Counted from the stretch's first letter, positions 949 to 47,346 are shown. The stretch: DNA of 58,336 bases from Patescibacteria group bacterium (GCA_041667185.1 JBAYFM010000010.1:1-58336), one strand, 5' to 3'. The notes: generated from the letters alone by a model not told the origin. Numbers and translations: made by a program.

Positions 949-3900
949 TTATTTCCTGCCGAGGAAATCCAGGAGCGGGCTCCAGTCGAGACTGGTGCCG
1001 ATCTCCAGAGACCGGGCTTCCCGGGTGCCTGACGGCAAACCCCACTCGGGGATGCTGAGCTGGTTGATCTCGGCTACCCGCCTGACGAGCTGTTTGACGG
1101 CTTCGTCCTTGGCTGAAGTACCCATCTCATGCTTGACCACCTTCCAGAGGGAGTCGCCCACCGCAAGCTTGGTCAGCGACACGCTGCCGGTATTGGCGGC
1201 GGTCGCGGCCAGGGTCACGATGAACTTGACGTCGCTCTTGTAACCGTAGAAGGAGCCGTTCCGGTACTGCTTCGTGATCGTGGCGGCGATGGCCGCCTCC
1301 ATATCCACGAAGTCAACGGCCGCCACATCCTTGCCCACGTAGACGTACTTGCCGCTCTCGCCGTCGAAGTACCGGGCGATGACCAGGTAGTGGCCCGGAG
1401 CCGCCACGCCCTCGTAGCAAGTGCCGGTGGCGTCAGACGTGCAGCCGCCGATGCGGCCGGTGTTCTGCTGGTAGATGAGCGGGTACAACGAGCTATCGGG
1501 CTGATTCTTGCCGGAGAGCGCCTGGAACGCCGGATCGGCGTAGTCGAAGAGTTTCGTGCGCACGCCCCAGAGCGAGGTCTTCACAGAGACCTTCGTCGAG
1601 AGTTCCAGTTTCTCCAGGGTGAAAGTGTTCTTGATGCCGATGGAACAGCCCTGATAGCCGGCGCTGCCGGACGTGGAGGGCGGACACATATCAACGATCC
1701 ACGTCATCGAGGCCGGCGTCGCCTGGATCGTACCGAACTCGTCGAATGCGCGGACCTGATAAGTGTGCGTGCCTGCGGTCAGACCCTCGATAGTCATCGG
1801 AGAGGCGCAGGCCGAGAACTCAGCGCCATCGAGGCTGCACTCCAGCCGATCCGTCGGCTGAGGAACAGAAGGTGGGGTGGTTATGCGTAATTCGATGACG
1901 TGCTGACCAAGTGAGAGTCCACTGAAAACGTTGTAGTTCCGACAGTTCAGGTAGTCACCACCATCAATACTGCACTCAGTATTCGCAGGCACTCCCATTA
2001 CCCTGGAATAGTCGTAAACCAGGACTCGGTCGATGCTGAAAGTGGTCGCCTCCGGACCGCATTCGAAGCTGTTGAGATAATATTCGTAATCGGAGTCGTA
2101 ACCTCGTATCACGCACATAGCTGCTTGCGACAACGGCCCCTGCGACCCCTGGCTGCCCTCGGTGCCACTGAACGTGACGACCAACGGATCAGCGAAGCCC
2201 GCGTCGGGAGCAGCGCCTATGACATTATTACCCTTCCAGTCAATGGCCGAATCGATGGAGGACGCCAGGACCACAGGCGATCTGAGATCGATCTGGGTAA
2301 GCTTTTGATTCCACAAGCCGTCTGCATCCTTGCATCTCATGGGCAGATAATGACTGCCGGCAGACGGAGTCCCTGCAATCACACCTGTCCAGCCGGACCA
2401 GCCCGCTGGCAGGGTCACTGAAGCCGTACCGCTCACGCCGCCGACATCCGAAAGGGTCATAGCTTCGGAGACCCTAGGGGTAGCGGAGTTGTTGCTGTCG
2501 AGCCAGCATTCGGTCACGCCCTGGTCATCGCTATACGACGCGGTGAATGTCCGCGGCTGGTCGATACGCGCCCAAGCCGGCGCGAGATCGCTCAGGACCG
2601 GAGCGGTCGGATTAAGATCTTGATTCCACCAGTATCCACCGTCCTCATCCATATTCCCTTCCAGATCAACGCACCTCGCGCTGAGAGAGGTCGTGCCCGA
2701 GAGCCATCCTGCTGAATTTGTCTCACCACTAATAATGGTACTTACACTAGGAGCATTGTACGTTCCGGGTATGAAATACGTCTCCGTGGTGCCGCTGGTA
2801 CTGCCGCGGGTCAGGATCAGCTCTTGGTTAATAGTTCTATAGGTAGGTTCGTATCCCTGTTCCGCCCCCACCCTCCCCTCCTCTGCGTTCGAGGCATAGA
2901 AACGGCAGGCATAGATCCCCTTGGGGGCAGAGTAGCTGACCGAGACCGGCTTCGGCACGCCTTTAGAACCTGACAAGCTGGTGTTAAGACCAATCTGAAT
3001 CTCATCAGTGCCAAGCTGATAGGCCATATTGGCCAGTATCTGATTCGAACGTCCGAGCGCATCAGTGCAGGTCAGGTTCATGGAGACGGACCAATTTCGG
3101 TAGCCAGTGAATATTCCTTGGTAAGCTCCCCAGAACACTTCCGGTCCAGTGAGCGTCAGGGCGTATTCGTTGGTGGTCCAGGTTTTCTTCACCAGAGAGG
3201 TCGCGAACGAGATCTCTTCGTTGTAAGAATGGGAACTAGCGGTGCAGGAGACCAACTCGGAGTCGTCGACGACCGTAAGGTTGAGGACGGGAGAGAGGAC
3301 TGAAGCGGGGAACACGGTCGGGACATCGACGAAGTAAGGCGGACCGATGAGCGTCGATATCGTCGTAAGCTCACCCTGCCCAGTTTGGCCGGCGGTATCC
3401 GTACAAACGACGTAGACATTCCAATTGTCGCCGCCGGAGAACGTCCAGGGCAGCGTGGCTATCCCCTGATCGGCGCCGGGTGCCGACAACGTGGCCGCGG
3501 CATGGCTGCCGTCATCGAAGACGAACTCGCAAGCAGTCACTCCTCCCTGGTAATCCGAATAAGGAGCGGACAATAAGGTTTCGCGTCCGGGCACCACCAG
3601 GGTCGGTTCGACCGTGCCAGCGGACGGAGCATAGTCTACAGGCCTCGTCAGGTAAGCCGACGATTCGCTGCCGACCGTGCTATTGCCGTCGGCATCGCTG
3701 CACCTGGACTGCATATAATGGTACGACCATTCGTCGTTCCCATAAGGCCACTGGAAGTCGGCCGGGATCACATAGGTGGCAACGCCGCTCGTGCCGCCCG
3801 GAGCCGACAGGGTCATCGGACCGATGTCCGTGTAGTCGGCGATGAAGATACACTCCGTCACGCCCAGATCATCCGCGTAGTCCACTTTAACAGTCGACGG

Positions 3901-5904
3901 GACTCCGATACTGATCTCGAAGGCGTACGGATCCAACTCCGTCTGGCCGACGACCGGAAGGGCCGGGTTCGGCGTCAGTTCGAAGTACGTATAATTCTGA
4001 TCGTTGCTGGCGCCGCTGGCGTTCGAGCAGACCACAGCCACGTAATGGAATGAATTCATGTTCCCCCAGGGCCACTGAAAGTCGGCTGGAATCACGTAGG
4101 TGGCAGTACCGCTCGCGCCGCCCGGAGCCGACAGGGTCATCGGACCCATATTCGTGTAGTCGGCGTAAAAGTCGCAGCTAACGACGCCGGCCTGATCCGA
4201 ATAATCGGCGGAAATGGTCACCTCCGTACCGACCGGGGCAGAAGTCGGCGAAATCGGTCCGACCGTCGGCCGCGGAACGCTCAGCATGACCAAACTCCAG
4301 TAGGAAGACCCGATCTTGCTCTCGACATCCGTACACGTAGCCATCGCGTAATGGTAGGTCTCGCTATTCCCGAAAGGCCACGAGAAATCAGCGGGCAGGG
4401 TGTAGGTCGCCGTGCCGCTCACGCCGTTGGGATCAGAGAGCTCCATCGACAGAGGCGTGACCAGGTCCCAATCATCGATGAACAGGCTGCAGGAAACGAT
4501 GCCGAGATCATCAGAGTAATCCACCGTGAAGCTCGCAGTCTGGCCGAGCTGAACCGAACTCGGCGCGCTGAGGGAAACGGTCGGCACCCCAGCTTCGGCC
4601 AGGAGAACGATGTACGTCGATCCTTGTTCCCAGTACATGCGGCCGGTCGTGTCTGCGCACTCCGCATAGACATAGTGATAGCTGTCGGGATAATTCCCCC
4701 AGGACCACTGGAAATCTGACGGGATGGTGTACGAGACCGTTCCGGTGCTGCTCGCGGGATCGCGAGTGATGGTCATGGGACCGACGAAAGAGTAATCGGC
4801 GTAGAAGGCACAGTAATCCAGGATCGCACCTTCCAGCTCTTCATAAGAAGCGGTGAAGGTCGCCTCCGAATTCAGATTGACCGACGTCGGAGAGAACTGG
4901 CCCACGTAAATGCCGGCGTTCATCCCGGTGACCGCGATGGTCGTGAGAGCGCCGGTGCCGGAGTTATCCGCGTCATCGAGGCAGACGACCTGCGCCGTCT
5001 GGTCGCCGGTAGAAGTAAAGACGTACGCAAACGAGGCTGTGCCGCTCATGGCACCCGGGGCGGAAAGGTCCATGGCCCCCAGGTTGGAGCCGTTCACGAT
5101 GAGGTTGCAGCTCATCACGCTCTGATCATCCGAGTAGTCGGCGGACAGCGTGACTGTCTCGCTCATGACGGCCGAGGTCGGGCTCACGGCGCTGACGGTC
5201 GGCGGAATGATGTTGCTGGCATTCCGGGCCAGCAGGCTGGTCACCGGACCCTGGCCGACGTTGCCGCGGTCGTCCTCGCAGGTGACCCGGGCTTGGTGCG
5301 GCCCCACCACGGCCGTCCGATACCGAAGAGTGGCTGTGCCGCTCGCCAGGTCATGCTTGATGAGCGTCATCGCTCCGATTGCGGTCCCGTCGAACTCGAA
5401 AGTACACTTCTTCACTTCCGCCAGGAGCCCGATGTCCTGGTATTCGGCGGAGAAGGTCACGTCCGTGTTGGTGTTGAACTTCACCGGCGCGACGGCGCCG
5501 ACCGTGAGCGGGCTCACCGCCATGAGCGTCGTCTCCGTGCCGTTGCCGACATTGCGGTTGTTGTCGGAACAGACGACCAGCGCACGATGCTCGCCGGTCT
5601 CAGGCACCACATAATTAATCTTGGCCGCGCCGCTCGTGCCGCTCGCCGCGTTGATCTGAGACAATTGCATCTTTCCGATCATCCGGCCGTCGAACAGGAA
5701 AAGACATTCTTTCACGCCCACGTTGTCGGTGAAGTCCGCAGAAAATGGTGTGATGACATTGGCGCCGACCAGACCGGGAGTGACCGCGCCGACTTCCGGA
5801 GCCGTGATATCAGCGGTCCTCGCGTTCGCCAGGCCACCGGACAGCATGGCGCCGGCAAAAATGGCGACAGCCGCTGTAATTATCCGTAACTTTAGGTGCT
5901 TCAT
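949..5904 (-). CDS. large secreted surface protein with tandem Ig-like repeat modules and a LysM-like C-terminus
   Basis: 1651-aa ORF with a signal-like N-terminus (MKHLKLRIITAAVAIFAGAMLSGGLANA). At least 9 tandem modules of ~95-110 aa share the pattern ..S(A/P).Y.D..GV..C.F......G.M.L......G.A.....C.D..GN. Two C..DG..F..C..P....GL..G.H modules follow. The C-terminal VGDSLWKVV...VAEINQLS...LEIGTSL resembles LysM. Confidence 0.85.
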   Translation of the reverse strand: MKHLKLRIITAAVAIFAGAMLSGGLANARTADITAPEVGAVTPGLVGANVITPFSADFTDNVGVKECLFLFDGRMIGKMQLSQINAASGTSGAAKINYVVPETGEHRALVVCSDNNRNVGNGTETTLMAVSPLTVGAVAPVKFNTNTDVTFSAEYQDIGLLAEVKKCTFEFDGTAIGAMTLIKHDLASGTATLRYRTAVVGPHQARVTCEDDRGNVGQGPVTSLLARNASNIIPPTVSAVSPTSAVMSETVTLSADYSDDQSVMSCNLIVNGSNLGAMDLSAPGAMSGTASFAYVFTSTGDQTAQVVCLDDADNSGTGALTTIAVTGMNAGIYVGQFSPTSVNLNSEATFTASYEELEGAILDYCAFYADYSFVGPMTITRDPASSTGTVSYTIPSDFQWSWGNYPDSYHYVYAECADTTGRMYWEQGSTYIVLLAEAGVPTVSLSAPSSVQLGQTASFTVDYSDDLGIVSCSLFIDDWDLVTPLSMELSDPNGVSGTATYTLPADFSWPFGNSETYHYAMATCTDVESKIGSSYWSLVMLSVPRPTVGPISPTSAPVGTEVTISADYSDQAGVVSCDFYADYTNMGPMTLSAPGGASGTATYVIPADFQWPWGNMNSFHYVAVVCSNASGASNDQNYTYFELTPNPALPVVGQTELDPYAFEISIGVPSTVKVDYADDLGVTECIFIADYTDIGPMTLSAPGGTSGVATYVIPADFQWPYGNDEWSYHYMQSRCSDADGNSTVGSESSAYLTRPVDYAPSAGTVEPTLVVPGRETLLSAPYSDYQGGVTACEFVFDDGSHAAATLSAPGADQGIATLPWTFSGGDNWNVYVVCTDTAGQTGQGELTTISTLIGPPYFVDVPTVFPASVLSPVLNLTVVDDSELVSCTASSHSYNEEISFATSLVKKTWTTNEYALTLTGPEVFWGAYQGIFTGYRNWSVSMNLTCTDALGRSNQILANMAYQLGTDEIQIGLNTSLSGSKGVPKPVSVSYSAPKGIYACRFYASNAEEGRVGAEQGYEPTYRTINQELILTRGSTSGTTETYFIPGTYNAPSVSTIISGETNSAGWLSGTTSLSARCVDLEGNMDEDGGYWWNQDLNPTAPVLSDLAPAWARIDQPRTFTASYSDDQGVTECWLDSNNSATPRVSEAMTLSDVGGVSGTASVTLPAGWSGWTGVIAGTPSAGSHYLPMRCKDADGLWNQKLTQIDLRSPVVLASSIDSAIDWKGNNVIGAAPDAGFADPLVVTFSGTEGSQGSQGPLSQAAMCVIRGYDSDYEYYLNSFECGPEATTFSIDRVLVYDYSRVMGVPANTECSIDGGDYLNCRNYNVFSGLSLGQHVIELRITTPPSVPQPTDRLECSLDGAEFSACASPMTIEGLTAGTHTYQVRAFDEFGTIQATPASMTWIVDMCPPSTSGSAGYQGCSIGIKNTFTLEKLELSTKVSVKTSLWGVRTKLFDYADPAFQALSGKNQPDSSLYPLIYQQNTGRIGGCTSDATGTCYEGVAAPGHYLVIARYFDGESGKYVYVGKDVAAVDFVDMEAAIAATITKQYRNGSFYGYKSDVKFIVTLAATAANTGSVSLTKLAVGDSLWKVVKHEMGTSAKDEAVKQLVRRVAEINQLSIPEWGLPSGTREARSLEIGTSLDWSPLLDFLGRK
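3746..4164 (-). repeat. intragenic near-identical DNA repeat pair (3746-3841 and 4069-4164) inside the 1651-aa gene
   Basis: The two ~96-nt segments align with only scattered mismatches: ggccactg[g/a]aagtcggc[c/t]gg[g/a]atcac[a/g]taggtggca...ccgcccggagccgacagggtcatcggacc...gtgtagtcggcg. They encode the GPMTLSAPGG.SG.ATYVIPADFQWP.GN part of adjacent modules. Confidence 0.8.
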
Positions 5905-6139
5905 ACTTTTCTTGTTTATTCTGAACCCCGGGATCGGGGCCTGAGAAATGATTTATGTAATTATTAAAAAAAATCGCCTTGTTAATGATTCATAACATAG
6001 ACGGATCTTGAGCCGCAGCCGGCTGGATGTAGGATTGCTATCGTCATGCGTACCCTGTCGTTAGTCTTGCCGGTTCATGACCGCAATAAAATGTGATTTA
6101 TTTTTGTTTATTCTTGAAACTTTTCAAGCCTGTGGATAC

Positions 6140-6169
6140 ATTATATCAATTTTACCCCCCCCCTCACAA
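6140..6169 (-). promoter_or_regulatory. candidate promoter TTGTGA-18-TATAAT whose spacer contains a G9 homopolymer
   Basis: Minus strand reads cTTGTGA GGGGGGGGG taaaattga TATAAT g. The -10 is RC of 6140-6145, the C9 tract on the plus strand is 6155-6163, and the -35 is RC of 6164-6169. It lies ~240 nt upstream of the ATG at 5904. Confidence 0.4.
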
Positions 6170-6223
6170 GAGCCCCGCTCTCTTCCATAACCTTAGTGCC
6201 TGACACCGAAGTCACTAACAATT

Positions 6224-6287
6224 GGGAGAGTGAGGGAGTGCGGTAGTCAGGGAGAGACGGAGCCACGTCGTTCGCGAGCGACGTGGC
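6224..6287. repeat. octamer-phased GGAG-type intergenic array, locus 1, with 24-nt palindrome
   Basis: gggagagtgagggagtgcggtagtcagggagagacggag followed by CCACGTCGTTCGCGAGCGACGTGG (6263-6286). Confidence 0.8.
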
Positions 6288-6430
6288 GGAGGGTGTGGGG
6301 CTCCTCCTCGCCCGCCACTCGCTACCAGGGGCCCCTGCCCCTGGTGCTCGCGGCTCCTTCGGAGCCCGGGTCGTCCGCAACTTGCCATACTAGGCAAGTT
6401 GCGTCCGTACCCTTCGAGCCCCACACTTCC
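6284..6430 (-). other. 147-nt structured element bounded by inverted copies of the tRNA-Ser T-arm/acceptor 3' half, with an encoded CCA end
   Basis: Minus-strand 5' arm GGAAGTGTGGGGCTC is RC of 6416-6430. The 3' arm GAGCCCCACACCCTCC-G-CCA is RC of 6284-6303 and is identical to the last 20 nt of tRNA-Ser (6472-6491). Three perfect internal hairpins lie at 6377-6402, 6352-6366 and 6324-6345. Confidence 0.55.
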
Positions 6431-6471
6431 ATAATTAAATGTGACCCCGCATTAAGCGGAGTCACATTTAA

Positions 6472-6560
6472 TGGCGGAGGGTGTGGGGCTCGAACCCACA
6501 AGACCCCTTACGGGGTCGCAGTTTAGCAAACTGCTGGCTTACCATTCGCCTCAACCCTCC
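6472..6560 (-). tRNA. tRNA-Ser (anticodon GCU), long variable arm, CCA encoded
   Basis: RC reads GGAGGGT TG AGGC GAATGGTAA GCCA GCAGT TTGCTAA ACTGC GACCCCGTAAGGGGTCT TGTGG GTTCGAGC CCCAC ACCCTCC G CCA. It folds as a cloverleaf with acceptor, anticodon and T stems, and the anticodon loop is TT-GCT-AA. Confidence 0.9.
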
Positions 6561-6813
6561 TTAAAATGTAGGACCGACCTATTTATGTTTCCGTGATCGA
6601 GAACTGGCTTACAGTGCCCTTGGTCGCGCAGCGACCAAGACTACAGACGAGGCGGCTAAGGCCGCCACATCTCACTGCAGGCCGCACCATCGGACGGGCG
6701 GAGCGCAGCGAAGACCTGTCCGGCGGCATTTCGCTCGCATATTATATGAATTTGCTCGCAAAATCCAGGGCGCCCCTTGGCGCCCGCACATTGTTCGCCT
6801 GCTCACAATGCGC

Positions 6814-6832
6814 CCATTCGCCTCAACCCTCC
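6814..6832. repeat. 19-nt direct copy of the tRNA-Ser 5' end
   Basis: ccattcgcctcaaccctcc occurs at 6542-6560 (tRNA positions 1-19 on the minus strand) and again at 6814-6832. The two copies bracket 253 bp. Confidence 0.85.
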
Positions 6833-6913
6833 AATAAACTAGTTACTGGGTGCTAGGTGCTAGTAGCCCCGGAATCCTACCCCAAACGCGCCTATTTGTG
6901 AAGACCGACGAGC

Positions 6914-7666
6914 CTATCCACGCAACAACGTCAGCCCCCAAACCCGCTTGGCTCCCCGCGCTCTGAGCACCCGGGCGCAAACCGACAAGGTCGCTCCGGT
7001 AGTGAAGACGTCGTCAATCAGCAACACCGATTCGGGAACTCTCGTCCCCGGCTCCAAAAATATCATCCGCTCAACGTTCCTGTGCCGCAACAACGGCGAA
7101 TCCAGCTGAGTCTGGCGCTTCCAGCCGAAACGCCGCCGTAGCAGCGACCGGACCGGCAACCCAAGCGGCGCCGCGACCGCCGTCGCCAGCGTCCCGGCCT
7201 GATTGAAACCACGCCAAGCCTCGCGCCAGGGGTGCAGTGGGACCGGCATGATCACGGCCTCGAGCCCGAGCAAGCTGCCCATGACCGGCTGCGACCGGGC
7301 CGCAAAACCGCCCAGAACGCCCGAGATCGCCCGACCGGCTTCCAGGATGCCGGAATACTTATATAAATGAAGAGCTTCCCGCGCCGCCGTCTCGGCGTAC
7401 GCCGCCGCCGACATGACGCCATCCAGCGACGTCCGCGACCGGCACGCGGTCGAGCAGGCCGCGCCCCAGACCGATGGCGCGGCGCAGCCTGGACACTTAA
7501 AAACGCCCTTTCGGGCGCTCAGATTCAGCCGACAATCATCGCAGATGACGCTCCCCTCCCGGCCGCACTCCACGCAATAATGGGGAAACAAGACCCCAGC
7601 CGCCCCACGGCCCAGCCTCAGCCAGAATTCACTTTGTCGCCCCATTTGGCCGCGTCTACTTTCCAT
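6914..7666 (-). CDS. comFC: ComF family protein (phosphoribosyltransferase-type, ComFC-like)
   Basis: N-terminal double CxxC zinc-finger-like motifs (CVECGREGSVICDDC, CPGC) and a C-terminal PRTase motif (VLLIDDVFTTGATL). The start is uncertain (alternative ATG at 7645). It overlaps the upstream ORF end at 7618. Confidence 0.8.
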   Translation of the reverse strand: MESRRGQMGRQSEFWLRLGRGAAGVLFPHYCVECGREGSVICDDCRLNLSARKGVFKCPGCAAPSVWGAACSTACRSRTSLDGVMSAAAYAETAAREALHLYKYSGILEAGRAISGVLGGFAARSQPVMGSLLGLEAVIMPVPLHPWREAWRGFNQAGTLATAVAAPLGLPVRSLLRRRFGWKRQTQLDSPLLRHRNVERMIFLEPGTRVPESVLLIDDVFTTGATLSVCARVLRARGAKRVWGLTLLRG

Positions 7667-8299: not shown

Positions 8300-10201
8300 T
8301 TATTTGTTGCCTTCCGCTTCCGCCAACTTAGCCTCGTATTCTTTCTTGGCCGCTTCGATCTCGAGAAGCTGTTGCGGGTTCGTGGTGACGACCTGGTCCT
8401 CGGTATAGGAAGCGACGACCTTGATCGCCGCGTGCTTGTTGCCGGCGAAGAAGATCCCCTCGCCCACGCCACCCTCGAGCAGCAGGAACTTCTCGCCCTC
8501 CGTGAGCATGAAAGTCTTCTGCAGATTATCGACCGCAGCCGGCGACTGTTTCAGCAGGAGCTGCATGGCGGAATTCGTGACGATCGCCTGGCCGAACGGC
8601 GAGCGCAGGAAGTCGTTGACGTCCTGGGTGATGGTCGTGACGCCGAGATAATACTTGCGGCAGCGTTTGACGAGAGCGAAGATGAATTTCGCGGAATCCT
8701 CGTTCTGCATGAGCCACCAAGCCTCGTCGATGACGAGGATGCGCTTCTTCCGTTCCGCGCGGACGACGTTCCAGATGTAATTGACGATGGCGTAGATCGC
8801 GAGCGGCCGTAGCTCGTCCTCGAGGTCGCGCACGCAGAAGGTCACGAGGATGTTGTTCATCGCGACCGTGGTCGGGGAATTGAACAGGCCGGAGAAAGTG
8901 CCTTCGGTGTATTTCTTGATGCGGATGACGAGATCGGCCGTCCCCTCCATGCCCTCGAGCACCTGCTGGAAATCCTGCATGATCGGCATCTCGACCGTGG
9001 CCAGGTCCGCGTCCGGCGTGATGTCCTTCTTGGCGTAGGTCTCAAGCAAAGCGCGATCCAGGACGGAATCTTCCTGAGGCGTCACGTTGCCGAGCATGAT
9101 GCGCAGCAGGCCCTTCACGGTGATGACCGCGCTCCGGATGATGTCCTCGGTCGACACTTCGCTGCTGATGGCGCGCGGCAGATCGAACGGATTGATCTTG
9201 GCGTCGGAGGCCAGCGAGATATTGATGTAAGTGCCGCCGACGGCGTCAGACAAATGCTTGTACTCCATTTCCGGGTCAATGACGATGACCTCGGTGTTGA
9301 GCATGAGCGACCGCAGGATCTCGAGTTTCACGGCGTAGCTCTTGCCGGCGCCGGAGGTGGCGAAGACGATGTAGTTCGCGTTCTGCATCGAGAAGCGGTC
9401 GAACAGGATCAGGCTGTTGTTGTGGCGGTTGATGCCGAACAGGATGCCGTTGTCCGAGGTAAGGTCCGCGGAGATGAACGGGAACGAGGAAGCGATCGGA
9501 CTGGAGTTCATGTTGAAAGTGATCATGAGCTCGTCGTTCCCGAGCGGCATGGTCGAGTTGAACCCCTGCTCCGAAGTGTAGAAAACCCGCTTGGTATAGA
9601 TCAATTTGCCGCCGAAGAGCGTCTCCACATCCTCGGAAAGCTTGTCGAGCTGAGTCTTGTCCTTGGCGTAGATGGTGACGTAAAGCGCGAACTGGAAGAA
9701 ATGCTCGGTGCCCTGCGAGAGCGAGTCGCGGAGATCCTCGATGTCGCGGAGCGCGGTCTCGCGGATCGGATCGCGGGGCGCGCCTTTCTCGGAATCCGAC
9801 AGGATCTGCGCTTCGAGCGCGCCGACCTTCTTTTTGAGCTGCTTCAGGATGATGTCCGCGCGGACCGGATAAAAGAACATGGCGACGTCGAGCGTCGTGT
9901 TCATGTTGATGATCGGCGCGAACCAGCCGAGGGTCACGTAGCGCGGGTAGGTCACGACGAAGATGGTCCGGACGAAAGTCTCGCCGAGGACCAGGAAGGT
10001 CGGATCGATCTTCATCCCGGCCGGAGCGATGACATCCTTGATGGAGACGACGCCTTTGCGATAGATGCGCTCCTCCTCGAGCAGTTGTTTCTCGGTCGCG
10101 ATCTTCTCAGCCTCGGCGAGCTTCCGGCGATCGGCCGGATCCGGCTGGCGAGGCGGCTGGACCGCTCCGGTCGCGCCTAGTTGTTGCGGTTTGAAAGCCA
10201 T
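8300..10201 (-). CDS. virB4: VirB4/TrsE/PrgJ-type type IV secretion ATPase
   Basis: 633 aa. Walker A is VFATSGAGKSYAVK and Walker B is RILVIDEAWWLM. The N-terminal domain has the VirB4 pattern (VRTIFVVTYPRYVTLGWFAPIIN). Confidence 0.9.
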   Translation of the reverse strand: MAFKPQQLGATGAVQPPRQPDPADRRKLAEAEKIATEKQLLEEERIYRKGVVSIKDVIAPAGMKIDPTFLVLGETFVRTIFVVTYPRYVTLGWFAPIINMNTTLDVAMFFYPVRADIILKQLKKKVGALEAQILSDSEKGAPRDPIRETALRDIEDLRDSLSQGTEHFFQFALYVTIYAKDKTQLDKLSEDVETLFGGKLIYTKRVFYTSEQGFNSTMPLGNDELMITFNMNSSPIASSFPFISADLTSDNGILFGINRHNNSLILFDRFSMQNANYIVFATSGAGKSYAVKLEILRSLMLNTEVIVIDPEMEYKHLSDAVGGTYINISLASDAKINPFDLPRAISSEVSTEDIIRSAVITVKGLLRIMLGNVTPQEDSVLDRALLETYAKKDITPDADLATVEMPIMQDFQQVLEGMEGTADLVIRIKKYTEGTFSGLFNSPTTVAMNNILVTFCVRDLEDELRPLAIYAIVNYIWNVVRAERKKRILVIDEAWWLMQNEDSAKFIFALVKRCRKYYLGVTTITQDVNDFLRSPFGQAIVTNSAMQLLLKQSPAAVDNLQKTFMLTEGEKFLLLEGGVGEGIFFAGNKHAAIKVVASYTEDQVVTTNPQQLLEIEAAKKEYEAKLAEAEGNK

Positions 10202-10208
10202 AGTGTGA

Positions 10209-10904
10209 TCAGACCGTGGACGCGTTATCGCTCACGCGCAATTTATCGGTGTCGCTCATCTTCTCGGAATCGAAAGTTTCCGGATTATAGACCCGATAAT
10301 AGAGCTCGATGAGGCTCTGGGTGTCGAGCTGTTGGGATTTCAGGCCCATGCTGTTCAGCGCGCTCTGCATATGCTCGACGCGGAGCATCAGCTGCTGTTT
10401 GCGCTCCTGGAAACGCTTCTCGGCGAGCCGCACGGACAGCGCGGGCGAGATCGCGTCCTGCAGCTGCGCGAAAAATCCCTTGCGCTTGTCGGACAGCGGA
10501 TTGTACGGCACGACCACGAAGAACTGCTTCTGCATGATCTGTCCGAGATCGATGAGTTCCTTGATGAACGCGCGGTATTCGGAGATCTGCATCCGTAGCA
10601 GGTCGTTCTGCTGTTCCCGTTCGGCCGCCTGCAGGCGTTCCAGATATTTGTCGATGTTCAGGCGCCGCGACTGGATGACGATCTGCAGCGGATACTCGAG
10701 CGAGTTCAGGAAAGCGACGTACTGGGCGATGACCGCGTTCTGCTCGTCCTCGGATTTGAGGGCGAAATTGATGCTGGCGACCATGATGACGGCCCGAAGC
10801 GTGCCATCGCGCATGATGACGATGTCCTCCTTGATCTCGGCAATGTCGATGTAACGCTGGGTGGCCGGACCCGGTTTCGGACCGGCCAATTTCTGGGACT
10901 GCAT
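10209..10904 (-). CDS. stand-alone protein resembling the N-terminal domain of Gram-positive VirB4 (TcpF/Orf16-type)
   Basis: 231 aa. DIAEIKEDIVIMRDGTLRAVIMVASINFALKSEDEQNAVIAQYVAFLNSLEYPLQIVIQSRRLNIDKYL matches the I..I..d.i....G....v..v..iNF.L.S..Eq..i...f..fL..l..p.Qi pattern. No P-loop is present. Confidence 0.7.
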   Translation of the reverse strand: MQSQKLAGPKPGPATQRYIDIAEIKEDIVIMRDGTLRAVIMVASINFALKSEDEQNAVIAQYVAFLNSLEYPLQIVIQSRRLNIDKYLERLQAAEREQQNDLLRMQISEYRAFIKELIDLGQIMQKQFFVVVPYNPLSDKRKGFFAQLQDAISPALSVRLAEKRFQERKQQLMLRVEHMQSALNSMGLKSQQLDTQSLIELYYRVYNPETFDSEKMSDTDKLRVSDNASTV

Positions 10905-10910
10905 AGGACT

Positions 10911-11348
10911 CTAGTCTTCCGGATTATAGACGCCGCCCGTGTTCACGATGAGCGACAGTTCGTTCAGCTTGGTCGTGCCCAGCGCCTCCTTGTAGATCCT
11001 CTTTTTGGGCGGCAGGGGCGGCGGAACCCTGACGATGAAATTCAACTCGGCATCGGTCAGGTTCTTGTCCCAGGCCCGCAGAGCCGGCCGCCGCAGCGTC
11101 TGGACCAGATTGAGCAGAAAAAAATGGAACGGTTGGCCGTTGACCCGGAAAAAAGCCAGGGTGCCGCCGATGAGAAGCAGGGCGATGGCCACGACCAGGA
11201 ACAGGCTGAAATCGAAGAGCTTGTAGGCCAGGAACTGAAAAAACGCCATTGCGAGCAGGATCACGAATTGGCGCGTAGTGACCGGCCCGATGATCTTATC
11301 CTCCACCTCGATGAATTGCGGCACGGTGTACTTCATGACGTCTTCCAT
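10911..11348 (-). CDS. PrgI family (VirB3-like) small membrane protein
   Basis: 145 aa. KYTVPQFIEVEDKIIGPVTTRQFVILLAMAFF followed by two TM segments is the typical PrgI layout. It lies immediately upstream of the VirB4-type genes. Confidence 0.75.
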   Translation of the reverse strand: MEDVMKYTVPQFIEVEDKIIGPVTTRQFVILLAMAFFQFLAYKLFDFSLFLVVAIALLLIGGTLAFFRVNGQPFHFFLLNLVQTLRRPALRAWDKNLTDAELNFIVRVPPPLPPKKRIYKEALGTTKLNELSLIVNTGGVYNPED

Positions 11349-11386
11349 TATATCACAACCCCGCAGGACGGTCGCACGACCCCGGA

Positions 11387-12685
11387 TCAGCCGAAGCGGA
11401 GCTTCCGATTAAGCTCCATGATGGCATCGAATTCCGCTTTGTTGAGCACATTTTCGCCCTTGGATTCCTTCTCGGCGATGATCTCCATGATCGGCCTTCC
11501 TTCAAGGCTGGAGCGCAATAATTCAAGATAAAGGCGGTTAGCCTCCGATTCCTGCCAACCCCTGATGCCGGCCGTGCGTTTTTCGAACGACTCTTCTTTG
11601 AGCAGGTCGATCTTATCGGTGATCTTCAGGGTCGCTTCATGCGGATCGCGCGACAGGCGGCGGAAGTCCTTGATGGTCATGGCGCGCAATTCTTCGACCG
11701 GACCGAGGAGTTTGGAAGCGAATTTGACGTCAGAGACCACCGGCTTGATCTCGGTCAGAGCCGGAATCTGGACCTGCGCTGGCGCCGCTGGTTCGGGAGT
11801 CGGCGCTTCCTCTGCCCGGACGACCGGCAATCCCGGCGGCGGCGGAGCTTTGGCTGCCGAGGGTACCAATTCGATATTGATCGTTTCGGGCTCGGCGGAA
11901 ACAGCGGGATGAATGGCCGCGGCATCGACCACCGTGATGATCTTCGGGGTCGAGGGCACGGCTGGCTGGACCGGGAACGGCGGCGCTGCGGCAGCGGAAC
12001 CGGATCTCTGGGTGATCTCCGAGAAACGACGCTCCAGAGTCTCGACCTCTTTCGTCTGCGCCTGCTCGGAGACGTTCAGGACCTTTTCCGCCTGCGTCGC
12101 GAGATACCGCTGTCTCGCCGCATCATTGGCCGACTGGATCAGGCCGCGATAAGCGGCGACCTTGGCTTCGAGCAGCGCCATGACGCGGTCAGCCTCGGCA
12201 TCGTCGAGTCCCATGCCGCCGGAGCCGCGGGACATCGTGAGCTTGGACCTGGTCTCGAGCGCGTCGCGCAGATCGCGGAAGAACAGGTTCACAGCGGTCT
12301 GGTATCTTTTTTCGAGATCGAAATCATTGAGCCGGACGCCGCTGGCTTTGACCGCGTCCGCGACCGCCGCGTCCAGACAATCGGCTTCCGAGGCCATGCC
12401 GGATGAGTCGGCTTTCTGCTCGGCACGGGCGGTCTCTCCGGCCGCGATGAGATCGGCGGAATCGAACTTCGAAACATCGGGTTTCTTTTCGACGACTGAC
12501 GTCGGCAAAGCCGTGGCGGGAACAGTTGCCGCCGCCGGCAGTTGATCCGCGCCGTCCGGCGATGCGGAAACAGCCAGTGCGGTCGTCTGATCGCCCTTGA
12601 TGACGCGTCGGGGCTGGTTCTTGCTGACGACGATGATCTCGTCGTCATCCAGACCGAACGATCGATTGCTGGCGTTGTCGGCCAT
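11387..12685 (-). CDS. hypothetical protein (Ala/Pro-rich, coiled-coil-like) of the T4SS-like operon
   Basis: The ORF track gives 11387..12745. The ATG at 12685 (MADNASNRSF...) starts 10 nt after the upstream stop at 12696, so I prefer it. I recognise no motif. Confidence 0.65.
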   Translation of the reverse strand: MADNASNRSFGLDDDEIIVVSKNQPRRVIKGDQTTALAVSASPDGADQLPAAATVPATALPTSVVEKKPDVSKFDSADLIAAGETARAEQKADSSGMASEADCLDAAVADAVKASGVRLNDFDLEKRYQTAVNLFFRDLRDALETRSKLTMSRGSGGMGLDDAEADRVMALLEAKVAAYRGLIQSANDAARQRYLATQAEKVLNVSEQAQTKEVETLERRFSEITQRSGSAAAAPPFPVQPAVPSTPKIITVVDAAAIHPAVSAEPETINIELVPSAAKAPPPPGLPVVRAEEAPTPEPAAPAQVQIPALTEIKPVVSDVKFASKLLGPVEELRAMTIKDFRRLSRDPHEATLKITDKIDLLKEESFEKRTAGIRGWQESEANRLYLELLRSSLEGRPIMEIIAEKESKGENVLNKAEFDAIMELNRKLRFG

Positions 12686-12695
12686 AGATCTGTGG

Positions 12696-13982
12696 TTAGA
12701 CTTCCACCGGTTCAAGCCATTTGAATATCCCCTCGTCCGCGTCAAAAGCCGCGAGTTCAGCGTCTGCCGTCAACAGATTGTTCTTTTTCAGCAGATTATA
12801 AGCTCGCAAACCGAACCGGGCGGAATCATTCTCGGTCAGTCCGGCGAAACCGCGCAACAGCATTTGCATGAAAAAATTGAAGAAGCGCGTCTGGTAGGGA
12901 TCGATCTCAAGCATCGCCGCCCCGTCCGCGTTGCCGGCCGCCAGACGATCGGCGACCAGGTTGCGCAAGCGCTTGTCCTTGGCCAAAACATCCCACAGCG
13001 TGCCTGTCTGGGCCAGCGCCATGATCGCGGACACGACCTCCAGCCGGTCAACAGCCTTCCCCTCTTCCGGGAAAAGCTGGATGAAAAGCCAACCAGCCAG
13101 ATCCTCCGGCTTTCGGCCAGCAGTATCGAAAATATTCTGGATGTGCCGGGCGAGATCAGCCTGTTCTTCGGGCGCGCCGGCATAGATGTCACGGATCATT
13201 TTCGGCGTGAACCTGGGCTCGGCCGCCGCCGCAGCGGAAACCGGCGGCACGATATCTTCGATGAAGACGGTCGCGTTCAACTCATCATGAATGGCGTCCA
13301 GGATCCGCTCGGCATCTTCCGAAGCCAGGTCGAGCCCGCCGGTCTTCACCGGTTTCATCAGCTGTTCCTTGATCTGAGTGTCGGTCCGGACCGCGCGCAG
13401 ACGCGTTTCGATGAGATGCTGCAGGCGCACGCTATCGAACTGGGGCGGCAGGAATTTGGCGGCCTCAGCGGAGATCTGGCGGGCGCCAGCGTCATAACTC
13501 ATGAGCTGCAACGCCAGTTTCTCCTGCGGAAAAACTGCCGGATCAACCTTCAAATCCCTGATGAACCCATCGACATCGCCGATATAGCCGCTAGCCGGCA
13601 AAAACAATTGTCCAGCGATCTCGACCGCCAGTTTATCCAGTCGCTCCCGGTCGGACCATTTGAGACGTTCGGCCAACAGGCCATGGAATTCCTTGAACGG
13701 CCGGGTGCGGAAAAAAATGGCGTTGATGACGCTGACCATGGCGAAGATCTCATCGCTCGCCAACTGGAAGTCAGTCGCGACCTTCTCGAACCTGGCATCG
13801 GTCGACGGCGACAAGAGATATTCCCTGATGGCGGCCGGAGCTTTCTCCAGCAACTCGAAAAAATCCGTGTCCGGCGCTGGCGGCGCCGGCTCGGCCGGCA
13901 GCGGCGACGCTGAAACAGCGGCTGATCCGGGAATCGTCCCGGCCGCGCCCGCTGCTCCGGCTTTTACTGTCTCCTCAGACAT
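12696..13982 (-). CDS. hypothetical protein of the T4SS-like operon
   Basis: 428-aa ORF with ordinary amino-acid composition. The competing plus-strand ORF 12597..13913 is Arg-rich, as expected for antisense reading. Confidence 0.7.
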   Translation of the reverse strand: MSEETVKAGAAGAAGTIPGSAAVSASPLPAEPAPPAPDTDFFELLEKAPAAIREYLLSPSTDARFEKVATDFQLASDEIFAMVSVINAIFFRTRPFKEFHGLLAERLKWSDRERLDKLAVEIAGQLFLPASGYIGDVDGFIRDLKVDPAVFPQEKLALQLMSYDAGARQISAEAAKFLPPQFDSVRLQHLIETRLRAVRTDTQIKEQLMKPVKTGGLDLASEDAERILDAIHDELNATVFIEDIVPPVSAAAAAEPRFTPKMIRDIYAGAPEEQADLARHIQNIFDTAGRKPEDLAGWLFIQLFPEEGKAVDRLEVVSAIMALAQTGTLWDVLAKDKRLRNLVADRLAAGNADGAAMLEIDPYQTRFFNFFMQMLLRGFAGLTENDSARFGLRAYNLLKKNNLLTADAELAAFDADEGIFKWLEPVEV

Positions 13983-14006: not shown

Positions 14007-16811
14007 CTAAGCGCTCTTGACCCGGCCGGCGGCTGAAGCTCCGGCGATACCTTTGGGAGCCGCTTTCTGGATTATCTGTTTGGACGCTTCCTGCGCCCTC
14101 GCGATCCTCTCCATCATGATCTTGATCTCGGCCTTGAACTCATCACTGTCGTGGCCCAGGCTGGGACGCATCTTTTCGACCAGTTTGGCGGCAATCTCGG
14201 CCGGATCCTTGATCGCGGCGATTCCCTGCGCCGCCTGCATCATGGCCGGATTTTTCGCCTCGGCCATCTGGTTGACCGTGGTAGCGTCAATATTGGTGAC
14301 GAGCTCGATGGCCACCTCGTTCACGCCGCCGCCAGCCGTAAGCACGGAGGGACTGATCGAGGCCGCCAACTCGGCCGCTTGCGCCGGCGACTCTTTGGCG
14401 CGTTCACGGAATTGCGCCCGTCCTTCGTCGGCATAGCTGCCGCTGAAATTACCGCTCGGGTTGAGCGAGAAATTCTCCAGCGTCCGGCTTTGCAGGGCGG
14501 CTTTCAACACGCTGGCCTGCCCGATGCTGTCCGGATTCTTGGCCAGTTCGTTGATACCAGACAACTTCAAGCCGTCGGCGATCTGTTTGGACAACTCGAC
14601 ATTCTTACCCAGAGCTTCAGCGTCGACCTTGGCCACTTGTTCAGTGGTCAGGGCGCGTCCTTTCTTGTTATCAGCCAGGGCCGACAGCACCGCCGGGGTC
14701 AATTCAGCCCCGTCGATCGCGGCCACCTGCGCGTTGCTCATCTTGCTGTTGATGGTCGGCAAGAGCTCCTGTTCCCGCTGTTTCAGATACCGCTGTTTTT
14801 CCTCGGACTCAAGACCGGCAGCCAGGCTCTCGCCGCTTTTCCTGTTCAGAAACGCGTTGATCTTGCCAGTGACATCCGTACCGGCGAAGTCCAAAGCCTT
14901 AGTCAGGGCTTTCGGATTCATCTTGGCCATCACATCGTCTGTCAGATCATCCTTGTTCATTTCACCGATCTTCTGAGGCGACAGGCTGCCGACGACCGAT
15001 TCGAAAGCCCGGCCATCAGTCTTAACGATGTCCATTCTCTCTTCTTCCGCTTTCGAAAGCTGGCCAGCCGCTTTCTTCTTCTCCAGATCCTGCCATTCTT
15101 TATAATTGGCGGCGGCGGCGGCCGGACGGGTCCTGATGGCTTTCCAGCGATCGCCGATATAGCTCGGATCATCCTTGACGAACGCTGAATGCTGATCCAT
15201 GGCTTCTTTAACCTTGGCGGTATTGCCGGAGATCAAAGCGGCAGACAGTTCATTCTTGGCCACAGCCGCAGCCCGAGCCCGACCAGCAGGTGTCAACCTG
15301 CCTAATTTACCCATCACAGCCTGAACCCGACCAGCAGGTGTCAACTTGCCTGATTTATCCACTGTGCCCGTGCCCATGGAAGCAGCGTATTTCTGATACT
15401 CCGGCGGCAGACCGCCAATCTCTTTCTCCGCCCGCGATCTGATTTCCGCGGACTTGGCCCGGGAATCGATCAAAGCTCTTTTGGCCAAGCCACCGCCCAT
15501 AAAAGACGGCAACCTCATGGCCTGGGCCAGACCAGCCTCTTTCAATTTATCCAGACGACCGCCACTCAAGTTATCAGCAGTCACGGCAACACCCCTGCCA
15601 GCCCTGAGGCTCATGCGACCGGCTTTCTGAGCGTATTTCGTCGCGCCCTGGCGGATCTGCTTGGCCATGCCCATGGTCTCGCCGGCCATCTCGGTCGCCA
15701 TCGTGTAACCGCCGAGCAGCAGACAGACGCCGATCATGAACTGCTGGACGCTCTGACTATTGAAAGCCGCTGAAACCTCGTCGCTGAAACTCTCCTCCTC
15801 GTTGCGCGCCGGAAAACCGGCGGTCACGTCGCCCTGCTGGACGACGGCCAGCGACAACCACAGGAAGAAAGCCAGGAACGGCCCCACGATCACGTTGCTC
15901 GTGAACTTGGACCACCACTTGCCGTAGAAACCCGAGGCCGCGCCGCCAGGGACCGCCTTCAGGAAGAACGCGAGCGGCGACAGGACGACGAGCAGCCACA
16001 GGAAAACGATGCGGACGATGAGAGTGATGGTCATCATGATGACCACGAAGGTCGCGATCGCCGTCATGACCACGGCGAGCAGCATGGACACGACGATGGC
16101 CGTGGTCGAAGCGTCGGCCCCTTCGCTCTTCGAAGAGTCCGAGGCCTGCATCATCTCGGTGATCTTCATGGCCTCCATGAAGTTGCCGCCGGCGGCATCC
16201 TTGAAGCCGCTCACGAAGGTCAGCATGACCACCTGGCCGAAATCGATCATGATGCCGCAGAGCGTGCGGGAGAAATTGATGACGATGGCCATGATCAGGA
16301 GGCGCGTGAGCTTGCCGCCCTTGATGCTGTAGTTGTCCATCCCGAGGATGGTCGCGAACGCCATGATCAGGAGGACCACGATGAAGAACATGTTGACCAC
16401 GTCCCGGAGGATCGACCAGCCGAGGCCGACCGCCGGCGACGTGACGAACGAGTTGTACTGAGCGACGTTGACGAGCACGCCCACGACGATGAGCAGCACC
16501 GAGGCTAGCAGCCAAATGATGAGCTCACTGGCGTAACCGATGATGACGACGACCATTTTCTCAATGGGATCTTTCGCGGCATAGACAGAGCTCGCCGACC
16601 AACACAAACCGACGACGACGATCGCCGCGACAGCCAGCATCGCGTAAGCATCGCGGCCGCGGGGGCGCGCAGCATAAAGTTCCGCCGCGCGGGAGCGAAG
16701 CCGGCCGATCTGGGTCCGGATACCGTTCAGTTTTGAGGCGATCATATGGCTCTGGTTCAGGGTCAACTTTACGGCACTTCGATCTTGATCTTGCCGTAAG
16801 CCCAGGTCCAC
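14007..16811 (-). CDS. polytopic membrane protein, VirB6/TrbL/PrgH-like by topology and position, with a ~540-aa hydrophilic C-terminal extension
   Basis: Multiple hydrophobic segments in the first ~390 aa (e.g. VVVIIGYASELIIWLLASVLLIVVGVLV, FFIVVLLIMAFATILG, IVVSMLLAVVMTAIATFVVIMMTITLIVRIVFLWLLVVLSPLAFF), then a Lys/Ala-rich soluble tail. An alternative start at 16745 (MIASKLNG) would remove the overlap with the giant gene. Confidence 0.7.
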   Translation of the reverse strand: MDLGLRQDQDRSAVKLTLNQSHMIASKLNGIRTQIGRLRSRAAELYAARPRGRDAYAMLAVAAIVVVGLCWSASSVYAAKDPIEKMVVVIIGYASELIIWLLASVLLIVVGVLVNVAQYNSFVTSPAVGLGWSILRDVVNMFFIVVLLIMAFATILGMDNYSIKGGKLTRLLIMAIVINFSRTLCGIMIDFGQVVMLTFVSGFKDAAGGNFMEAMKITEMMQASDSSKSEGADASTTAIVVSMLLAVVMTAIATFVVIMMTITLIVRIVFLWLLVVLSPLAFFLKAVPGGAASGFYGKWWSKFTSNVIVGPFLAFFLWLSLAVVQQGDVTAGFPARNEEESFSDEVSAAFNSQSVQQFMIGVCLLLGGYTMATEMAGETMGMAKQIRQGATKYAQKAGRMSLRAGRGVAVTADNLSGGRLDKLKEAGLAQAMRLPSFMGGGLAKRALIDSRAKSAEIRSRAEKEIGGLPPEYQKYAASMGTGTVDKSGKLTPAGRVQAVMGKLGRLTPAGRARAAAVAKNELSAALISGNTAKVKEAMDQHSAFVKDDPSYIGDRWKAIRTRPAAAAANYKEWQDLEKKKAAGQLSKAEEERMDIVKTDGRAFESVVGSLSPQKIGEMNKDDLTDDVMAKMNPKALTKALDFAGTDVTGKINAFLNRKSGESLAAGLESEEKQRYLKQREQELLPTINSKMSNAQVAAIDGAELTPAVLSALADNKKGRALTTEQVAKVDAEALGKNVELSKQIADGLKLSGINELAKNPDSIGQASVLKAALQSRTLENFSLNPSGNFSGSYADEGRAQFRERAKESPAQAAELAASISPSVLTAGGGVNEVAIELVTNIDATTVNQMAEAKNPAMMQAAQGIAAIKDPAEIAAKLVEKMRPSLGHDSDEFKAEIKIMMERIARAQEASKQIIQKAAPKGIAGASAAGRVKSA
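15278..15357 (-). repeat. in-frame 48-nt tandem duplication inside the VirB6-like gene
   Basis: cccgaccagcaggtgtcaac[c/t]tgcct[a/g]attta occurs at 15278-15309 and 15326-15357. It encodes GKL(G/S)..TPAGR twice. Confidence 0.75.
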
Positions 16812-32513: not shown

Positions 32514-32570
32514 AAACTTCAAACTAGAGAGTTTAATTTCGACTGCTGAAGCTTAGCTCAATTTTGAGAA

Positions 32571-32820
32571 ATTGGGAATATAGAGAGTGCGGGAGTCAGG
32601 GAGTGACGGAGTTACGGAGTCATTGTCTCTACCTGATCCAATGAACGGGAGAGTGCGGGAGTGGAGGAGTTGGGGGAGACCCGACAAAAACTCCTGCACT
32701 CCCTCACTCCTGCACTCTCACACCCCAAAACTCCCATACTCCGTCTCTCCCTGACTCCGCCACGTCGTTCGCGAACGACGTGGCTCCGTCTCTCCTGCAC
32801 TCCAGCACTCCAGCACTCTC
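32571..32820. repeat. octamer-phased GGAG/CTCC array, locus 2 (compound, with 24-nt palindrome)
   Basis: gagagtgcgggagtcagggagtgacggagttacggagtc ... gagagtgcgggagtggaggag ... ctcctgcactccctcactcctgcactctc ... CCACGTCGTTCGCGAACGACGTGG (32760-32783) ... ctcctgcactccagcactccagcactctc. Confidence 0.85.
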
Positions 32821-42820: not shown

Positions 42821-42976
42821 GAGAGTGCAGGAGTGCAGGAGTGCGGGAGAGACGGAGATGCGGAGAGACGGAGTCAGGAAGAGACGGAGTCAGGGAGTGA
42901 TGAAGCACTCCAGCACTCCAGCACTCCAGCACTCCTGCACTCCCGCACTCCCGCACTCCTGCACTCCTGCACTCTC
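42821..42976. repeat. octamer-phased palindromic element, locus 4 (archetype): 156 nt in strict 8-nt register with 29-bp perfect terminal inverted repeats
   Basis: gagagtgc aggagtgc aggagtgc gggagaga cggagatg cggagaga cggagtca ggaagaga cggagtca gggagtga tgaagcac tccagcac tccagcac tccagcac tcctgcac tcccgcac tcccgcac tcctgcac tcctgcac tctc. The first 29 nt are the exact reverse complement of the last 29 nt. Confidence 0.95.
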
Positions 42977-44570: not shown

Positions 44571-44722
44571 GGAGTTGGGGAGGATGGGAGAGACGGAGAG
44601 ACGGAGTCAGGAAGAGACGGAGTCAGGGAGTGATGAAGCACTCCAGCACTCCAGCACTCCAGCACTCCAGCACTCCGCCACGTCGTTTGCGAACGACGTG
44701 GCTCCAGCACTTCCCTACTCCC
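44571..44722. repeat. octamer-phased array, locus 5, with (GCACTCCA)4 and the 24-nt palindrome
   Basis: It shares the 43-nt block ggagagacggagtcaggaagagacggagtcagggagtgatgaa with locus 4. That is followed by four full GCACTCCA units, then CCACGTCGTTTGCGAACGACGTGG (44678-44701). Confidence 0.9.
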
Positions 44723-47247: not shown

Positions 47248-47346
47248 TTGGGAGAGTGCAGGAGTGCTGGAGTGCGGGAGTACGGGAGAGACGGAGTCAG
47301 GGAGTCAGTATCTTAACTTCGTATCTTCAGCACTCCAGTACTTCAA
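47248..47346. repeat. octamer-phased array, locus 8
   Basis: ttgggagagtgcaggagtgctggagtgcgggagtacgggagagacggagtcagggagtcagtatcttaacttcgtatcttcagcactccagtacttc. Confidence 0.85.

Follow-up and report, generated by a model that had tools for sequence, protein, structure and literature searches.

The question raised by this locus is why the 3' end of a tRNA gene recurs a short distance beyond the gene itself, and what is represented by the DNA which ends in this copy. The window (viz. the whole stretch of DNA that was analysed, 58,336 nt in length) is one complete contig of a bacterium from the Patescibacteria (CPR), a group with small genomes for which, to our knowledge, very few regulatory RNAs have been described; among the names attached to the relatives of its ComF and NusA proteins are Patescibacteria, Uhrbacteria, Paceibacterota and Kuenenbacteria. 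On the minus strand of this contig, a PrgI/TraC-like/VirB4-like cluster is followed by the gene for ComF (6914-7666), the tRNA locus and the gene for a 1651-aa Big_7 protein (949-5904). The tRNA gene, identified by both ARAGORN and Rfam, is an intact tRNA-Ser(GCT) with an encoded CCA (6472-6560, minus strand), and it is the donor of the repeated ends. Its last 20 nt, extending from the T loop to the CCA (6472-6491), recur exactly at 6284-6303, and a 14-nt inverted copy of its T arm, perfectly complementary to 6481-6494, is present at 6413-6426; both of these repeats had been noted in the original prediction and both are confirmed. When up to three mismatches were allowed, the 20-nt repeat had only these two matches in the window, with 0.02 expected by chance. 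For the element bounded by these sequences (6284-6430), three explanations had been offered, viz. a tRNA-like non-coding RNA, the scar of an integration into the tRNA 3' end, or a small mobile element. The first of these, in a modified form, appears to be the best supported, and we consider it on balance probable that the element encodes a structured small RNA, some 130-150 nt in length, which is known at present from a single lineage of Patescibacteria.

If the strand of tRNA-Ser (i.e. the minus strand) is taken as the sense strand, then the whole element, 147 nt from 6430 to 6284, folds at -99.4 kcal/mol (z = -8.66), a stability that was reached by none of 200 shuffled sequences. The fold, a covariance model (R1, 122 bits) and the covariation described below delineate it as a three-way junction of a closing helix P1, a P2-P3 arm and a P4-P5 arm. 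The 5' strand of P1 (6416-6430), GGAAGUGUGGGGCUC, corresponds to the acceptor 5' strand of tRNA-Ser, to which the T-stem 5' strand, GUGGG, is directly attached, and its 3' strand with the tail (6284-6303), GAGCCCCACACCCUCC followed by GCCA, comprises, by its identity to the last 20 nt of the tRNA, the T-loop end, the T-stem 3' strand, the acceptor 3' strand, the discriminator G and the CCA. In the predicted fold for the window, GGA pairs with UCC, a 1x2 internal loop and 11 bp follow, and the helix is succeeded by GCCA. The acceptor 5' strand of P1 is degenerate in the window, its exact form, GGAGGGU, being found in the homologue from contig L031, and at position 13 a C-G pair of this helix is exchanged for A-U in the homologue from L008. 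Read in this manner, the closing helix is the acceptor stem and T stem of a tRNA merged into one predicted 'minihelix', which is followed by the discriminator G and CCA; a two-armed domain of about 110 nt stands in place of the T loop, and the D, anticodon and variable arms are absent. An outer stem with a 3' GCCA tail, as originally proposed, is retained in the window in the form of 3 + 11 bp, whereas the cloverleaf-like shape proposed together with it is not, as only the closing helix is tRNA-like.

Of the two arms carried by this helix, the P2-P3 arm (6368-6412), which is delineated by covariation, has a 4-bp base (GGGU/ACCC), two more base pairs, a tandem G·A/A·G (6404-6405 with 6374-6375), an 11-bp stem and a hexaloop, UAGUAU (6387-6392). 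The P4-P5 arm (6304-6364), delineated by both covariation and conservation, is made up of the 4-bp P4, which in the window is CUCC (6361-6364) paired with GGAG (6304-6307), a purine-rich 6x6 internal loop, GAAGGA (6355-6360) opposite GGGCGA (6308-6313), and a variable hairpin (6314-6354). All of the three hairpins that had been named within the outer stem are present in the sequence. However, the one at 6352-6366, of 6 bp, is peculiar to the window genome and competes with the conserved P4 pairing, and in both the minimum free energy fold and the comparative data the CUCC/GGAG pairing replaces it, so that the conserved fold is a three-way junction and not the four-way junction suggested earlier.

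Synteny and a motif scan led to homologues of the element in metagenome contigs of four other Patescibacteria, viz. L008/L032, L011, L027 and L031. Two of these, at L008:6816-6952 and L011:3631-3771, came to light when contigs encoding more distantly related ComF proteins were inspected (ComF 42% and 45% identical, respectively, to that of the window). A single metagenome scan with a motif consisting of the conserved hairpin loop and the 3' end gave matches at 18 loci, 15 of which were chance matches in other sequence and three of which were real (L027, L031 and L032); as L032 is the same genome as L008, it was counted once, and the comparisons are thus based on five sequences inclusive of the window. 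The model R1, which was built from these five sequences, gave scores of 119-156 bits on the four homologues, and over 152 kb of fetched DNA it detected nothing beyond the homologues except weak matches to the T arms of tRNA-Ser. The five copies of the element are 61-73% identical to each other, and as this divergence parallels that of the hosts (ComF 42-45% identical, with 43% between the window and L027; NusA of the L027 and L008 contigs 78% identical to that of the window), a recent spread of the element is not suggested.

The pairing within the element is kept in all five genomes. Standard pairs occupy 92.8% of the alignment cells, compared to 38-45% when the partners are slid by 1-3 columns, and 14 of the 37 pairs are changed on both sides (shuffle mean 8.2; none of 500 shuffles reached 14), these counts being from five sequences in an alignment fitted to the model, with a shuffle control that ignores phylogeny. 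The same helices were obtained with RNAalifold on the same model-fitted alignment (A3), and the compensations are already visible in the raw MAFFT alignment. The comparison of homologous loci, which had been named as a check on the proposed fold, thus shows that the five nested helices, P1 to P5, covary. In the P2-P3 helices, 10 out of 15 pairs change on both sides, with 96-100% of the cells being paired in the five sequences; the base of P2 is GGGU/ACCC, GGGA/UCCC or GCCG/CGGC depending upon the genome, and the P3 stem, 8-11 bp long in different homologues, covaries at five positions. The P4 helix is similarly CUCC/GGAG, CGGC/GCCG or CCGC/GCGG. The unpaired and non-standard positions are also conserved: the tandem G·A/A·G is present in four of the five sequences (A·G/A·A in L027), the hexaloop UAGUAU likewise in four (UUGAAU in L011), and the strands of the 6x6 loop conform to G[A/G]AGGA opposite [G/A]GGNGA.

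The plus strand of the element folds nearly as stably as the minus strand (-87.3 kcal/mol, z = -7.8), and the count of G·U against A·C combinations does not pick a strand, as the paired cells number 168 for the sense strand and 167 for its antisense. We infer that the minus strand is the sense strand because it is the strand of the tRNA in three loci, terminators follow the element in this direction in L011 and L027, the conserved unpaired residues, including the tandem G·A, are purine-rich on it and make sense in this orientation only, and an RNA made from this strand would end in the tRNA's own CCA.

The near equivalence of the two strands, together with the neutral strand count, is also what may be cited in favour of a different reading, which we regard as unlikely, that the element functions as DNA, either as a MITE- or REP-like mobile element or as a protein-binding or single-stranded hairpin site such as an oriT of the adjacent secretion-like cluster, its match to the T arm being fortuitous. 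In keeping with this reading, the element has terminal inverted repeats of 14-17 bp, which are perfect in L031; its position and orientation differ in L008 and L011; partial extra copies of its 5' arm are found nearby, one detected by a repeat search about 95 nt downstream of the element in the window (6160-6190, minus strand, UUAUGGAAGAGAGCGGGGCUC...) and an equivalent one in L008; a dispersed REP-like family is present in the window genome, one copy of which abuts the element; and the VirB4/PrgI cluster adjoins the element in four of the five loci. However, five nested helices covary, and the conserved G·A pairs and purine loops are typical of folded RNA. Further, there is a single copy of the element in the 58 kb and one per related locus, no target-site duplication flanks it even though its ends are inverted, and its divergence parallels that of the genomes; on these grounds neither a MITE or REP-type repeat nor the small mobile element of the original prediction is supported. 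The oriT possibility was rejected since L031, the exception among the five loci, keeps the element with its tRNA-Ser and has no secretion cluster nearby.

The REP-like family itself is built around a 24-26-nt palindrome, (G)CCACGTCGTTCGCGAACGACGTGG(C), on either side of which are arrays of units, each 7-8 nt long, of the form nnACTCC / GTCTCTCC. Four copies of the palindrome are present in the 58 kb, where none is expected by chance, and the one at 6262-6287 overlaps the terminal CCA of the element. The positions of the family are 6226-6291, 32755-32795, 44673-44705 and 58199-58237, and also 32570-32611, 42821-42889 and 47262-47299.

The type-IV-secretion-like cluster (VirB4/TraG P-loop, TraC-like and PrgI proteins) adjoins ComF and is followed by giant ORFs of 934 and 3212 aa that have no Pfam match, the cluster and these ORFs together being at 8300-12745 and 14007-26407 on the minus strand. 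As the order of the cluster and ComF is also kept in L008, L010 and L027, the cluster appears to be chromosomal and not recently acquired.

With regard to its genomic setting, the element lies directly downstream of the tRNA gene and on the same strand in the window, L027 and L031, and in these three of the five real loci the order is tRNA-Ser(GCT), a hairpin and then the element. In the window this hairpin (6434-6472, minus strand), found by an inverted-repeat search, has 17-nt arms that are 94% complementary. The 3' end of the element is identical to that of the local tRNA over 20 of 20 nt in the window, over 20 of 20 nt and on into the terminator in L027, and over 17 of 17 nt in L031. The order in L027 is ComF, tRNA-Ser(GCT), the element and tRNA-Ser(TGA). 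In L008 and L011 the element does not follow a tRNA; there it comes after another conserved non-coding stretch and a terminator. This second stretch, referred to here as RNA X (L008:6985-7215 and L011:3808-4085, minus strand as sense), lies directly upstream of the element, and its last ~95 nt (...CAACCCACATGCCTCAAAT...GAAAAAGCCCnCAACGGC...TGGTGGGGCACTnAAC...TTACACCGCCA) are 79% identical between the two contigs. RNA X ends in CGCCA, after which there is an intrinsic terminator; it has no match in Rfam and is absent from the window.

A second repeat, which the original prediction had missed, involves the other end of the tRNA gene. An exact copy of the initial 19 nt of tRNA-Ser (6542-6560) is present 272 bp upstream, at 6814-6832 on the minus strand, and this displaced fragment now lies behind a conserved, ancestral promoter-like site, TTCACA-17-TAGGAT (6874-6902). 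In L001 and L027, in which no module separates this site from the tRNA, the intact tRNA occupies the spot that is held in the window by the displaced fragment. Between the fragment and the intact tRNA in the window there is a hairpin-rich module of 253 nt (6561-6813, minus strand), inside which are a terminator-like site (6768-6785) and a TATAAT; it is homologous to a module in L002 (84% over 134 nt), whereas the module found at the same D-loop position in L031 is unrelated to it. The duplication of the first 19-22 nt of tRNA-Ser upstream, with a module in between, is thus seen at 6561-6832 (minus strand) in the window, at L002:1210-1398 and at L031:1433-1612. These modules look like recurrent insertions into the D-loop region of the tRNA, with the 5' end being regenerated each time.

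According to the second of the explanations offered earlier, the 20-nt repeat would represent the attL and attR of an integrative element that entered the T loop of tRNA-Ser and subsequently lost almost all of its DNA, the fold being incidental. As in tRNA genes that serve as att sites, the direct repeat covers the tRNA 3' end from the T loop to the CCA, and such a region is a classic site of crossover for integrases that target tRNA genes. The displaced 5' fragment and the inserted module of the same tRNA also speak for this reading; a module is present at the D-loop position in both L031 and the window, and as these two modules are unrelated, the tRNA-Ser gene does attract insertions. Further, tRNA-Ser(GCT) genes without the element are present in L007 and L010, although both of these loci are non-syntenic with the window. 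However, five diverged genomes have conserved the interior of the element, a covarying fold of about 110 nt without a gene, while both partners have changed in 14 pairs, and a decaying remnant would not keep such an interior. The 168-nt DNA bounded by the repeats has no gene, and among the neighbouring ORFs of the window no integrase or cargo gene was found in or beside the element. A scan of IMG/VR with the element motif gave no matches, so that no virus in it carries this motif, and no phage attP was found; a scan of IMG/VR with a 17-mer gave four matches, none with a tRNA, two of which read as the HTLRH box of integrase genes. In L027 the direct repeat runs on through the terminator for about 55 nt, and because of this it looks like a tandem duplication and not an att core. 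An inverted copy of an arm is also not a feature of att sites, and vertical inheritance of the arrangement extends to genomes in which ComF is no more than 42-45% identical. Judged from these sequence comparisons, the att-scar reading appears to be largely refuted by the covariation, and we hold it to be very improbable.

Another possibility is that the element is a decaying pseudogene of tRNA-Ser, or debris of a tandem duplication, that has no function and whose ends are kept tRNA-like by gene conversion. The identity of the ends to the neighbouring tRNA with an interior that has diverged, the presence around the locus of incomplete copies of both the 5' arm and the tRNA's 5' end, and the condition in L027, where the 3' arm is identical to the tRNA and the 5' arm has mismatches, would all agree with this. 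However, gene conversion can explain neither the compensations in P2-P5, which have no counterpart in the tRNA, nor the conserved loops, and L008 and L011 retain the element with no tRNA-Ser adjacent to it. We regard it as improbable that the element is of this nature.

The gene for a structured small RNA, which is the reading preferred here, does not match any family in Rfam. Searches of Rfam, with the window at the gathering threshold and with the region 5900-6920 and the L008 and L011 loci at permissive E-values, returned only tRNAs and noise; the model for RtT RNA (RF00391) had no match by cmscan of 5900-6920 at E <= 10, nor at the gathering threshold, and no match to the SRP RNA model was seen. 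A tRNA was rejected since ARAGORN and RF00005 call only 6472-6560 and the element has no T loop or anticodon loop, and a tmRNA since ARAGORN finds none and there is no Rfam match. A cis-regulatory leader was set aside as the downstream genes differ at every locus, and a small protein because the ATG frame (MRIFPAPPGE...) that L008 and L011 have in common does not occur in the other three sequences (the window, L027 and L031). For the tRNA-like RNA that had been suggested, the covarying fold in four other genomes is favourable, but the cloverleaf and any match to a tRNA or tmRNA model are lacking.

If the tRNA-like features extended to function, then the element would be a true mimic of tRNA-Ser that is charged by SerRS, or bound by EF-Tu, the CCA-adding enzyme or another partner, and serves as a seryl carrier or decoy. 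The closing helix retains G1-C72, G2-C71, A3-U70, the discriminator G and the CCA, with the full acceptor stem present in L031, and the long helical arm that extends from the end of this helix loosely recalls the variable arm of tRNA-Ser, which SerRS reads. However, the T loop, D arm and anticodon arm are missing, the acceptor stem is imperfect from pair 4 onwards in the window, L008 and L027, and the tail is not free in the fold of L031. We see only a slim chance of such mimicry, and equally slim is the chance that, by keeping the SerRS identity elements (viz. the first acceptor pairs, G73 and CCA), the closing helix would cause the RNA to be serylated or to hold SerRS, EF-Tu or the CCA enzyme. 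If the mimic reading were true, the element could represent a non-ribosomal seryl carrier (e.g. for cell-envelope chemistry) or a sensor or decoy of tRNA-Ser charging in bacteria with reduced genomes, and a new aminoacylatable non-tRNA class alongside tmRNA.

Returning to the small-RNA gene, the element has probably arisen by a partial tandem duplication of tRNA-Ser(GCT), of which the 5' acceptor strand, both T-stem strands, the 3' acceptor strand, the discriminator G and the CCA would have been kept. The RNA may then be produced by transcription together with the upstream tRNA (or another RNA), through read-through of the weak first hairpin. A consensus scan found no promoter directly upstream of the element, and L031 has no convincing promoter for it. 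The hairpin at 6434-6472 is not called a terminator by the consensus scan, and as only a short U-rich tail follows it, we read it as a weak, leaky one; hairpins occupy the same place, between tRNA and element, in L027 and L031, the U tract is poor in both the window and L027, and stronger terminators come after the element in L027 and L011. However, a strong U6 terminator lies between the tRNA and the element in L031, which is against this part of the model.

In the next step of the proposed mechanism, the tRNA-like closing helix and the 3' GCCA would allow the RNA to be cut out, with RNase P acting at its 5' end and the tRNA 3'-end enzymes at the CCA, giving an RNA with defined and protected ends. 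Bacterial RNase P processes non-tRNA substrates that mimic elements of tRNA (PMC4919922), and in pre-4.5S RNA, pre-tmRNA, phage regulatory RNAs and, in eukaryotes, mascRNA, the ends are set by an acceptor/T-stem-like helix with a 3' NCCA-type tail (PMC4919922), as is predicted for this element. For such substrates a helix of at least about 12 bp and a 3' NCCA are expected, and the predicted fold in the window offers 3 + 11 bp and GCCA. In contrast to these RNAs, the inner domain of the element resembles none of them, and the models for tmRNA and SRP RNA do not match it. The geometry of P1 in the homologues bears on this step. In L031, the 5' strand GGAGGGU-GUGGG-GC, which corresponds to the acceptor 5' and T-stem 5' strands of the tRNA, pairs perfectly with GC-CCCAC-ACCCUCC, giving a helix of 14 bp and then GCCA if the RNA is cut before GGAGGGU; however, in the simplest fold the pairing runs through the GCC and the tail is of 1 nt unless the cut is made 3 nt further in. 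Two mismatches are present in P1 of L027 and its register is shifted in L011. Both the missing free NCCA in the simplest L031 fold and these imperfect helices count against the excision model, and because P1 geometry varies in this manner, a free NCCA is not clearly universal. In the last step, the conserved inner features, viz. the tandem G·A, the UAGUAU hexaloop and the G[A/G]AGGA / [G/A]GGNGA internal loop, would form the working part of the RNA, probably a protein-binding surface.

The closest known kind of element is provided by the tRNA-linked repeats (TLRs) of E. coli, viz. RtT of the tyrT operon (RF00391) and RrA, RrB and RrF of the rrn operons. [quoted passage not shown] The element resembles these repeats in its place next to a tRNA gene, which it follows in the same orientation in the window, L027 and L031, and in the last 20 nt that it shares with the tRNA 3' end (18-19 nt in TLRs); it is also flanked by hairpins, which may correspond to the first and second terminators of TLRs. 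Motifs of the GGA type are found in unpaired regions in both, and the unpaired AGGA/GGA of the element may be compared, by analogy, with the CsrA-binding GGA motifs of RrB. The two positional features that define the TLRs are thus present, but the element has no match in sequence or structure to RF00391 or any other Rfam family. Further, in contrast to TLRs, the element's own 5' strand pairs with the tRNA-derived 3' end, rebuilding the acceptor/T-stem helix, and its core covaries across diverged genomes; it is present in one copy per locus whereas TLRs form tandem arrays; its host belongs to the Patescibacteria; and RNase P is proposed for it in place of the RNase E proposed for RrB (PMC8144298).

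The element would thus add a candidate RNA class absent from Rfam 15, in which the acceptor/T-stem helix of a tRNA is recycled as an end-defining module, and it would suggest that an analogue of the TLR arrangement of E. coli occurs in a distant phylum. It would also be a clean system for examining how duplications of tRNAs become new RNAs, and if its ends are truly made by RNase P and the tRNA 3' enzymes, it would represent a natural form of tRNA-scaffolded RNA production.

As to the distribution of the element in other relatives, a scan of GTDB genomes for the tRNA 3' half gave three matches, none with the element, and no element is found beside ComF in the ComF relatives P0006, P0008 and P0011; two others, P0024 and P0030, are non-syntenic and uninformative. 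In the closest relatives (ComF 66-68% identical; identical in L004), the contigs L001, L002, L004 and L013 end inside or before the tRNA. Independent assemblies (L001, L004, L008/L032 and L013) end inside or beside the tRNA-Ser locus, with L001 and L004 both stopping in the anticodon loop. It is probable that repeats at this locus, or strain variation, break the assemblies, and such breaks may explain why the element went unnoticed.

Lastly, downstream of the element there is a strong promoter-like site, TTGTGA-18-TGnTATAAT (6140-6169, minus strand; 10 of 12 matches, with an extended -10), which probably serves the gene for the 1651-aa Big_7 surface protein (949-5904). The spacer of this site contains a run of nine G residues (6156-6164), just upstream of the -10 hexamer.
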